Source: Owenia fusiformis (Eukaryota). Taken from it: 64,000 bases of DNA. This document shows positions 36,601-39,600 of this stretch, one piece after another (position 1 is the stretch's first letter; each line of letters opens with the position of its first letter). Both the position numbers and the translations under genes were made by a program. The notes below the pieces were generated by a model. It did no database searches, was not told where the DNA came from, and worked only from the letters and a program-made list of their open reading frames with translations. The DNA lies in contig CAIIXF020000001.1 of the NCBI GenBank assembly GCA_903813345.2, forward strand, positions 26,598,001 through 26,662,000, read 5' to 3'.

Positions 36601-39600
36601 AGTGTTCATCTGATGGTGATTTCAGCCAAGAGAGCAATCTATAAACTGGTGTTTATGGGGGTGTTTATCTTATAGCAACTTCAGTCAAGTGAGCAATAAT
36701 TAACAAATCTTTATCTGATGGTTGTTTAGCCAAGAGAGCAAAGAATAAATGAATGTTTACTTGAGGGAACTTTCAGCCAAGAAACTATTAACTAATGTTT
36801 ACTAGTATCTTAAGGCAATTTCAACCAAGAGATAAAAACTATGACAAAGTGCTTACCTTAGGGCAGTTTCAGCCAAGAGGGCAATATTCTCAGCATAAGC
36901 CACACGCACCATCACCACTGGGTCCTGCACCAAGTTACTCTGCGTAAAGAAATATCATGTGACATTCTTAAGAAATAATAATCGAAAAATGAATTGCCTA
37001 TTTATAATTCAACTTACAAATTATTAACAATTAAGACTCAAATGTTGCTTGAAAAGAATTGATAGATAATACAATTCTTTCACTTAAGTGCCCAGTGATA
37101 ACAAATGCCACAATATCATGCAGCCTAGATAAAATCTGAGATCAAAACATACTGGAAATAGTACTATATTATGTATGTACTATACATGTACATATAACAT
37201 AAAGTTGCCATTTTTCTTACAGCGCAACTATCGTCAAATATTCAACTGAAGATTTGGCCATTAATATGGGGAAAAATATAGCTTACCAAGTTAGGAAGAA
37301 TATACTCGGGGAATATATTGGCATCATTTACAGGCAGAGTTTTGATATTAGCCAGGCACTGTGTTATGGTCCTCAGTGCTGCAGCTCTCACTCTGGGGTA
37401 CTGATCTTGGATGAGATGCAACTGAAATGGAACCACAATAAATGCAATGCAACTCTGGAGTACTGGTCCTGGATCAGATGCAACTGAAAGGGAACCACAA
37501 TAAATGCAATGCAACTCTGGGGTACTGATCTTGGATGAGATGCAACTGAAAGGGAACCACAATAAATGCAATGCAACTCTGGGGTACTGATCTTGGATCA
37601 GATGCAACTGAAAGGGAACCACAACAAATGCAATGCAACTCTGGGGTACTGGTCCTAGATGAGATGCAACTGAAAGGGAACCACAACAAACGCAATATAA
37701 CTCTGGGGTACTGGTCCTGGATCAGATGCAACTGAAAGGGAACCAAATAAATGCAATGCAACTCTGGGGTACTGGTCCTGGATGAGATGCAACTGAAAGG
37801 GAACCACAATAAATGCAATGCAACTCTGGGGTACTGCTCTTGGATCAGATGCAACTGAAAGGGAACCACGGTAAATGCAATATAAGCAGGCCCTCAATTT
37901 AAATAAAAAAGAATGGATTGTATGTTAATATTGCATCTGAACCTCTCTTTCTTTTTAATAAATTCAAGATTTTATAAAGTATATTTTTAGTTTATAAAAG
38001 TTTTTTAGTTTATTCACATTTTGTACTTAAAACGTGTACATACATGTAGTATACATTACCTTGAGAACTCAGAAATCAATCAGAATTCTAATACAAAGCA
38101 ATTATAGGAATCTTGAAAACCAGGGAAACCCAGAAAAATGAACTCTTGTTGTCAAACAAACTAAATTCAACTGTAACTGTGATGAGGATATTTTTTAAGG
38201 TGGATTTTTTTATATTTACCATATATGGCACTAATCTGTCCATGATGATGACAGGAGGTAGATACTCAGACAACTGTTTCAACACATCAAGGGCATCCAA
38301 CTTGGAGCTGCAGTACTGAAAACAAATTTGGGGTAAAGTCAGGTCTGGTTGCCTTAGCAACAAATTAACACTTTTAAAGTTGAGAACTGGCAGGGAAAAA
38401 TAGCGAAGAAAAGCTGCACAAATTGCAATAATTGCATATTCTAGATTTCAACTCCCAGTAAAATCTAAAAAAGTTTATCCAGTTCTGATGAGAATATATT
38501 TTATGAGCTGCAGTACTGAAAGCAAATTTGTGTTATGTCAGGTCTGGTTGCTTTAGCAACAAACTAACACCTTCAGAGGTGAGAACTGGCAGGGAAAAAC
38601 AAAATTGCAAAGGAAAACTGCACAAATTGTAAATTTTAGATTTCAACTCCAAGTAAAATCTTTAAAACATTTATCAGTTTTATTCCTAGTACTGCTATTT
38701 ATAAGCAGGTTTTGGCATTTCTTTATACTTAATTTAAACCTGGATTTGTTTTAGATGTAAAAATGTACTTACATTTAAGTCTCTAAGATTTGATGTTAGC
38801 AAAGACACAAGAATAACAAGACTTGTGTTCTCTGTTTCTCCAGATGATGATACCAACTTCAATTCTTTTTTAATCAGGTCCAAGTCTTTCTTAACTCTGT
38901 AAGTAAGAAAAATGTAATTTATTAAGAGAGTGTGTGCTTGTTTCTGCAAAAACAAACAATCAAAGGATTGGGATACAATATTGTATTAAAAAATTCAAAC
39001 ATATGTTTGAGAGCTAACTTTTGTATAATTTAGATTGTTTGCTGTTTGCTAATAACTGTGTAGGCTCTTGTGCTTTTATGCATTTCTGTCACACTTGTTT
39101 TGAACAATTGATATAAAAAACAACATGACAGATACTCTCAGAATTACAGCTTTACTGTACATTATACAAACTATCTGAAATTCACTAAAAGTTAAGTTTC
39201 TAAAATATAAATGTATTTTCTATGTAATATTATTCTTGTGGTCCATTAACTGCTTATTTTTGTGAAAACAAATCAAAACTAACTTAATGAATGGAACTGA
39301 ACTATTGCAAAAATTGTTCATTATTATTATACATATATCAACAACAAATCTGGTCACCTCATGATGCGAGCATCTGGACTCATTATTGGCGTACTAGCGA
39401 ATCTCTGGATGTATAACTTCAGGAATGTGTAGAATGTATCAGGAAAGGCTTTGCCTCTCTGTTGTATGAGATATTCCTCAGCTGAGAGGCGGTGGTTCGG
39501 ATCTTTCTGTATCATGTGCCTCGCCAGTTCCTTTAAAGAGTAGAAGGGGTAGAGATAAGTTTAGATTAAATTGTCAAAATTTTTAAATATTTTGCTCTCA

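Follow-up and report, generated by a model that had tools for sequence, protein, structure and literature searches.

In a 64-kb window of Owenia fusiformis DNA (the whole stretch that was analysed, 64,000 nucleotides), one exon of an annelid autophagy/endosome gene is preceded by eight near-identical 3′ splice sites in tandem. This raises the question of which of the eight acceptors is used, what sets it apart from the other seven, how an array of this kind came to lie inside a gene, and whether the surplus copies have any role there.

The window carries an annelid PIK3R4/VPS15 gene

The original prediction placed the array in front of exon 11 of PIK3R4. A database search returned a 1369-aa protein, P0003, which bears the source name "unnamed protein product [Owenia fusiformis]" and is the single member of its 90% cluster. 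The tblastn matches of P0003 span the gene, and exact spliced mapping of this protein to the window recovers its full length from 29 coding exons (Table 1). Its precomputed Pfam list includes protein kinase (PF00069), HEAT (PF02985), and WD40 (PF00400) domains, and the protein has the kinase-like N terminus, HEAT middle, and WD40 C terminus of PIK3R4/VPS15. Among PDB chains, the translation of exon 11 aligned to residues 423-466 of human PIK3R4 (E 2.9e-11) and that of a later exon to residues 588-672 (E 6e-35); the same two exons matched yeast VPS15 more weakly. These matches to human PIK3R4, together with the spliced map of P0003, indicate that the window carries the annelid PIK3R4/VPS15 gene. 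Thus the predicted gene identity, the exon number 11, and the donor position 38219/20 were all right, as judged by the spliced map and by the RNA contig described below, whereas the extent of exon 11 had to be corrected to 37287-37421.

Table 1. Positions of the PIK3R4/VPS15 gene, the exons and intron around the array, and the array copies within the 64-kb window
Feature	Position	Strand	Remarks
PIK3R4/VPS15 orthologue	27609..42779	-	29 coding exons, all introns GT-AG
Coding exon 10	38220..38315	-	ends ...VPYM, phase 0; donor GT 38219-38218
Intron 10	37422..38219	-	798 nt
Coding exon 11	37287..37421	-	135 nt, 45 codons (...PNL), part of HEAT-repeat region
Array	37390..37885	-	8 head-to-tail 62-nt units, each 31 nt of intron 3′ end and 31 nt of exon 11 start
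Copies 1-7 (decoy 3′ splice sites)	37453..37885	-	none joined in any contig of four runs
Exon-like first bases of copies 1-7	37854, 37792, 37731, 37669, 37607, 37545, 37483	-	pattern matches
Copy 5 (sole in-frame decoy)	37577..37638	-	+186 nt, 62 aa; branch-point-like A at -18 replaced by G
Copy 8 (functional copy)	37391..37452	-	acceptor AG 37423-37422; exon 11 from 37421; polymorphic at 37404 and 37407

Eight copies of the intron 10/exon 11 boundary

Tandem Repeats Finder reported a repeat of period 62 at 37390-37881, with 8.0 copies, 92% matches, 0% indels, and a score of 823. A degenerate 31-nt pattern of the exon-like half matched eight times in the 64-kb window, all eight inside the array, and none of 100 shuffled versions of the window contained a match. 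The array is real, chance being far from sufficient to produce it, and the predicted eightfold repetition of a 62-bp unit was borne out by both methods; with this period and copy number, it is a head-to-tail minisatellite (unit of roughly 10-100 bases). The unit had been described as a repeated intron/exon boundary, which stands, but its actual composition is 31 nt of intron-like sequence, namely, a T-rich tract running into TTTCAG, followed by 31 nt identical or nearly identical to the start of exon 11; copy 3 is one base short (61 nt), and the acceptors are spaced 61-62 nt apart. The positions of the exon-like first bases confirmed the predicted acceptor offsets of 62, 124, 186, 248, 310, 371, and 433 nt.

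Pairwise likeness among the copies is 87-98%. Thirteen columns are variable, 8 of 31 in the intron-like half versus 5 of 31 in the exon-like half, and three of the latter five are third codon positions. Each copy had been said to keep the pyrimidine tract, the AG, and the codons for ten residues. The tract and the AG are indeed kept in the decoys, but the ten codons are intact in only five of the eight copies, copy 1 carrying a D to E replacement, copy 4 a TAG stop after LHLI, and copy 7 a P to S replacement. A minimal event count gave three synonymous versus three non-synonymous changes among the copies, indicating no sign of coding constraint on the decoys; such constraint was rejected, with one decoy carrying a stop, two carrying replacements, and the variable columns divided between the halves as above. 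Furthermore, exon-like position 9 (37413, 37475, 37537, and so on) alternates strictly between G and C across the eight copies. This alternation amounts to a higher-order period of 124 nt, which no other variable column follows, and it hints that the array may have grown in 124-nt steps.

The ten exon-like residues align with residues 423-432 of human PIK3R4, and so the exon-like half was derived from the exon and not the reverse. Copy 1 is continuous with unique intron sequence, and its first bases are TTATATTGC. This start recurs at the unit junction before copy 4, whereas the other six copies carry the TTGCATTGC form, which fixes the left breakpoint and marks the TTGCATTGC form as derived. 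The right breakpoint of the duplication lies after nt 31 of exon 11. Among the 28 introns of the gene, only one is longer than intron 10; subtracting the 433 nt of extra copies leaves 365 nt, near the gene's median. These sequence comparisons support the view that the array is a tandem duplication of the intron 10/exon 11 boundary.

Real exon 11 itself has a donor-like AGA/GTGAGA at 37391 (nt 30/31), whose score of 4.03 is above that of two of the gene's 28 real donors, and the right breakpoint of the unit falls within it.

The copies are seen in DNA from independent samples

Public runs X1, X4, X5, and X7 were examined as assembled contigs on 36300-39100, and only X7 behaves as RNA. In X1, a DNA run, contigs were found in 28 of 30 bins, and eleven contigs fit two places. 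The summed contig depth of X1 was 303-482 in three array bins versus 51-128 in its flanks (bins between 36394 and 37427), a sum that, by the tool's own warning, is not equivalent to copy number. Run X5 yielded three different 49-nt contigs at 37481-37529, and X4 likewise covers the array. Both X4 and X5 provided unspliced intron cover only, at low depth, and one loose contig end in X5 looks like what we take to be a transposase adapter; in view of the unspliced low-depth cover and the adapter-like end, these two runs were treated as DNA-type evidence. The array contigs of X1, X4, and X5 thus indicate that three samples of three studies hold several diverged copies, although none of these contigs spans the array, k-mer contigs being too short for 492 nt of repeat.

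An assembly artefact, in which a true locus with one or few copies was inflated by the assembler, is very improbable on these data. Tandem repeats are a known source of assembly errors, as stated in the part of PMC6868369 available, and the exact count of eight, with its 492 nt of repeat, is beyond the reach of k-mer contigs. The copies, however, differ at 13 columns, whereas polishing errors would not show such a regular pattern, and distinct unit variants occur in independent runs, namely, the three X5 contigs and the X1 contigs that fit two places, along with the raised X1 depth. The published O. fusiformis assembly is described in the excerpt of PMC9977687 as built from PacBio reads with an N50 of 25-30 kb; reads of this length would span the array many times, provided that the window belongs to the published assembly.

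The last acceptor is joined in the transcript

It had been proposed that the spliceosome must skip seven near-identical upstream acceptors, and this is so in the transcript seen. Contig 27 of run X7 (RNA, 1941 nt, depth 203) joins 38220 to 37421, listed as "skips 798, CT..AC", and also joins 38315 to 38773, removing three neighbouring introns exactly as the protein map has them. X7 has zero cover inside the array, while the contig joins across it. P0003 reads the exon 10/exon 11 junction in the same way as the X7 contig, that is, with acceptor 37421. No joint to any of the seven upstream copies was listed in the contigs of the four runs on 36300-39100, contigs being prone to drop rare forms. 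By the prediction's own terms, near-exclusive use of 37421 would speak against it, and the single junction seen is that to 37421, in one contig of one run; the array length of the X7 sample may differ from that of the window.

The acceptors were joined to exon 10 in translation. As predicted, six of the seven upstream acceptors cause a frameshift, with first stops at 37657, 37476, or 37390, whereas acceptor 37607 in copy 5 is in frame and stop-free and adds 62 aa. The open reading frame assigned to the latter, 37242..37622, did not hold, the stop-to-stop frame really being 37242-37721. The array-coded 62-aa peptide had no match among proteins of 34-109 aa or of 110-2000 aa, which is weak evidence. 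The two decoys closest to the exon, 7 and 6, would yield exons of 197 and 259 nt, respectively.

Splice site strength does not single out the last copy

The 28 donors and 28 acceptors of this gene served to derive position matrices. With the acceptor matrix, the seven decoys scored 7.3-7.8, compared with 8.9 for 37421, the one-letter difference between a decoy and the used acceptor being an A in the tract. The decoys alone are mid-range among the gene's 28 real acceptors; all eight array acceptors fall in the middle or upper range of those 28 and, among 482 intronic AGs, rank in the top 1.5-3%. Six of the eight copies (1, 2, 3, 6, 7, and 8) have a branch-like TTTAY at -17 or -18, within a 31-nt AG-free stretch, and copies 4 and 5 have lost the branch-like A at -18. 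Five of the seven decoys thus share the branch-like motif of the used copy. RNA structure masking the decoys was not found, the fold z-score being 0.18, with 51 of 100 shuffles folding as well as the array. The acceptor site itself provides no explanation for the choice of the last copy.

The G at exon-like position 9 completes the word CTGAT, a branch-point consensus that lies 53 nt ahead of the following acceptor. As a branch point of the even copies, this word at -53 was set aside, since AGs intervene and it is located outside the AG-free zone plus 15 nt given in the section of PMC1431707 consulted.

A probable intronic minisatellite of decoy acceptors

We consider it likely that an intronic minisatellite of decoy acceptors arose locally at this boundary and that exon context selects its last copy. 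A 62-nt segment centred on the intron 10/exon 11 boundary would have been duplicated in tandem, and further rounds, presumably of slippage or unequal exchange, would have brought the copy number to eight. Since the remainder of exon 11 directly continues the last copy, the gene would have remained intact, and the seven upstream copies would have been absorbed into intron 10. Each upstream copy presents a complete-looking 3′ splice site with a polypyrimidine tract, a CAG, and mostly a TTTAY at -17 or -18, and the mature mRNA, judging by the one RNA contig and the recorded protein, uses the last acceptor only. General knowledge of splicing, namely, of exon enhancers and exon definition, suggests that the acceptor is most likely chosen by its context and not by the site itself. 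Downstream of the last copy lies the purine-rich exon sequence GAGAGCTGCAGCACTGAGGA, whereas T-rich intron sequence lies downstream of the other copies; moreover, the last copy is the nearest to the 5′ splice site of exon 11 and thus defines a 135-nt exon. Splicing that leaked to any of six of the seven decoys would run into an early stop, and the product would probably be cleared by nonsense-mediated decay (NMD). Rather than regulatory, the array seems to be neutral or to carry a slight cost.

Several findings stand against this reading. With mid-range scores of 7.3-7.8 and a branch-like motif in five of seven, the decoys should compete on sequence alone. Decoys 7 and 6 would form exons that are not unusually long (197 and 259 nt), so some use of them is expected. 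In addition, the strict G/C alternation at exon-like position 9 is not accounted for by simple neutral decay.

An early stop more than one exon junction before the end is the usual trigger of NMD. The original prediction offered, as an alternative to skipping, a splicing/NMD rheostat in which leaky decoys are spliced into frameshifted mRNAs that are degraded by NMD, the array length setting the productive PIK3R4 output. All seven decoys score like real acceptors, and six of them introduce an early stop at such a distance from the end; NMD would hide the decoy products from assembled contigs, and length variants are plausible for an array that is apparently exchanging sequence with the real exon. 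Nevertheless, nothing that was examined supports a rheostat, and it seems unlikely to us, as no decoy joint was listed in the four runs, the X7 contig with a depth of 203 uses 37421, and the array peptide is absent from the proteins on record. The decoys also bear no sign of selected upkeep, copies 4 and 5 having lost the branch-like A and divergence reaching 13%, and a regulatory role needs heritable length variation that is linked to expression.

The GT of the unit and the intron-gain analogy

The prediction further noted a GT right after the exon-like 30 nt, as in intron gain by tandem duplication. This GT is present in the seven upstream units, as AGA/GTTGCA in six of them (donor score -4.5) and as AGA/GTTATA in one (0.46). 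None of the gene's 28 real donors scores as low as the unit's GT, which is equalled or surpassed by 87% of 583 decoy GTs. A distance of 32 nt separates this GT from the next AG, and the shortest intron of the gene measures 124 nt. No extra intron or micro-exon was found in the X7 RNA contig, which removes one 798-nt intron (38219 to 37422). Therefore, with a GT weaker than any real donor of the gene and no new intron in the RNA contig, the locus is not a case of intron gain; the array lengthened an existing intron.

In the portion of PMC2891723 available, the tandem-duplication model of intron gain is described as needing an exonic AG/GT proto-splice site (other sources on this kind of intron gain are PMC3265369 and PMC4974935, likewise available in part). 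The PIK3R4 array resembles that model in having splice signals in series, with the duplicate inside an intron, and in that premature stops and NMD are invoked. It differs in that the model duplicates an AG/GT within an exon and places the new intron between the copies, whereas the PIK3R4 array straddles an acceptor. No exonic AG/GT proto-splice site was found for the unit, which lies across an acceptor that already existed.

These findings also bear on variation at the protein level, through either a 62-aa insertion into the HEAT region from 37607 or use of the exon-like 30 nt as in-frame micro-exons by way of the unit's GT. The frame from 37607 is open, 30 nt is a multiple of three, and third codon positions account for three of the five variable exon-like columns. 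Still, we find this idea hardly credible. Copy 5 is without the branch-like motif; the inserted peptide would be a read-through of intron-like sequence, found in no protein on record, and the X7 RNA contig is without the insertion. For the micro-exons, the GT is below 28 of 28 real donors and the next acceptor is 32 nt away, versus 124 nt for the shortest intron. The equal numbers of synonymous and non-synonymous changes give no constraint signal.

Comparison with known arrays and acceptor rules

The variable number tandem repeat (VNTR) of FAM20C, as presented in the available part of PMC5941971, shares with the PIK3R4 array its local head-to-tail copies of tens of bases lying over a splice junction of a conserved gene, each copy carrying splice-site-like sequence. 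The PIK3R4 array differs in comprising eight full acceptor modules and in being located in an annelid autophagy/endosome gene.

The first-AG rule, in the section of PMC1431707 consulted, concerns which AG follows a chosen branch point. Before the CAG of each PIK3R4 unit lie 31 AG-free nt, with a TTTAY inside in six of eight, which agrees with the rule. Taken together with this AG-free stretch and the TTTAY, the rule indicates that most copies are self-contained modules and that the branch site decides the acceptor; as far as that section goes, it is silent on why the last of eight equal modules wins.

Adjacent acceptors of the NAGNAG type (PMC3250501 and PMC4484395, in the parts available) similarly place several usable acceptors in series before one exon. 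Those acceptors lie within about 18 nt of one another and share one branch point and one tract, whereas the PIK3R4 acceptors are spaced 62 nt apart with a tract for each copy, and one offset only keeps the frame. Tandem alternative 3′ splice sites are a few to about 18 nt apart and both used; in the PIK3R4 array, one acceptor was seen used. A literature keyword search found no published case in which a whole acceptor module is arrayed in several copies, the search being too narrow for a universal claim.

Experiments with duplicated splice sites are classic work of the 1980s. If the locus is as it appears, it is a curiosity without a new mechanism, a minisatellite that happened to arise over an exon boundary and is tolerated by an essential gene that evolves slowly. 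It is also a natural experiment, in which eight near-identical acceptor modules in series test the part of exon context in 3′ splice site choice, in an invertebrate with mid-sized introns and with built-in variants, namely, a point difference in the tract of the used copy and the loss of the branch-like A in two copies. If length alleles exist, they would make a ready-made dosage series. Gene prediction should be wary of such a locus, where the true acceptor is directly preceded by seven false ones with normal scores.

Possible exchange between the array and exon 11

Real exon 11 shows two polymorphic sites, 37404 (exon position 18) and 37407 (exon position 15), in contigs whose anchor is unique exon sequence. 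The alternative letters had a depth of 58 of 113 in X1, and X4 and the X7 RNA contig showed further combinations, making three combinations across X1, X4, and X7. The two polymorphisms, CAA/CAG and GAT/GAC, are both synonymous and lie within the first ten codons. The alternative letters (GAC and CAG) are exactly those that separate copies 2, 3, 4, and 7 from copies 5, 6, and 8. That the exon is polymorphic at sites that vary between copies suggests exchange within the array, although it is no measure of array length. Conversion or unequal crossing-over between the copies and the terminal copy fits the shared letters at 37404 and 37407; an alternative that also fits is that successive duplications sampled standing synonymous variants of exon 11.

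A more far-reaching proposal is that the real exon recombines with the array as a single unit, with unequal exchange or conversion bringing copies to and from the terminal, expressed position and with array length, which would vary between animals, tuning the loss of PIK3R4 pre-mRNA by decoy splicing and NMD. We regard this as improbable. Were it true, the first ten codons of exon 11 would draw synonymous variation from intronic copies, and identical 3′ splice sites, in naturally varying copy number, would tune an essential autophagy gene.

Minisatellites and other features of the window

A second tandem array is located in intron 13 at 35929-36238 (134 nt × 2.3, 89% matches); this intron, of 1047 nt, is the longest of PIK3R4. 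Intergenic or unassigned minisatellites were found at 59582-61099 (72 nt × 21.1, 95%), 56237-57055 (162 nt × 5.1), and 63116-63298 (51 nt × 3.3), and two further arrays in the 64-kb window have periods of 13-16. About five other arrays with periods of 13-162 in this window indicate that minisatellites are common here. The array at the PIK3R4 boundary differs from the local minisatellites only in its birthplace.

Just upstream of the array, at 37971-38026, intron 10 has an AT-rich stretch with an 18-nt repeat. An X4 contig skips 37 nt within this stretch, and X1 is without a contig over 37898-38085. In intron 13, each of the four runs gave summed contig depths of thousands to tens of thousands at 36300-36393, and loose contig ends were numerous at 36333-36340, a pattern that points to a high-copy dispersed repeat. 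Downstream of PIK3R4, at 14091-14468 on the minus strand, lies an open frame whose translation looks like the N terminus and first membrane helices of a G protein-coupled receptor (GPCR).
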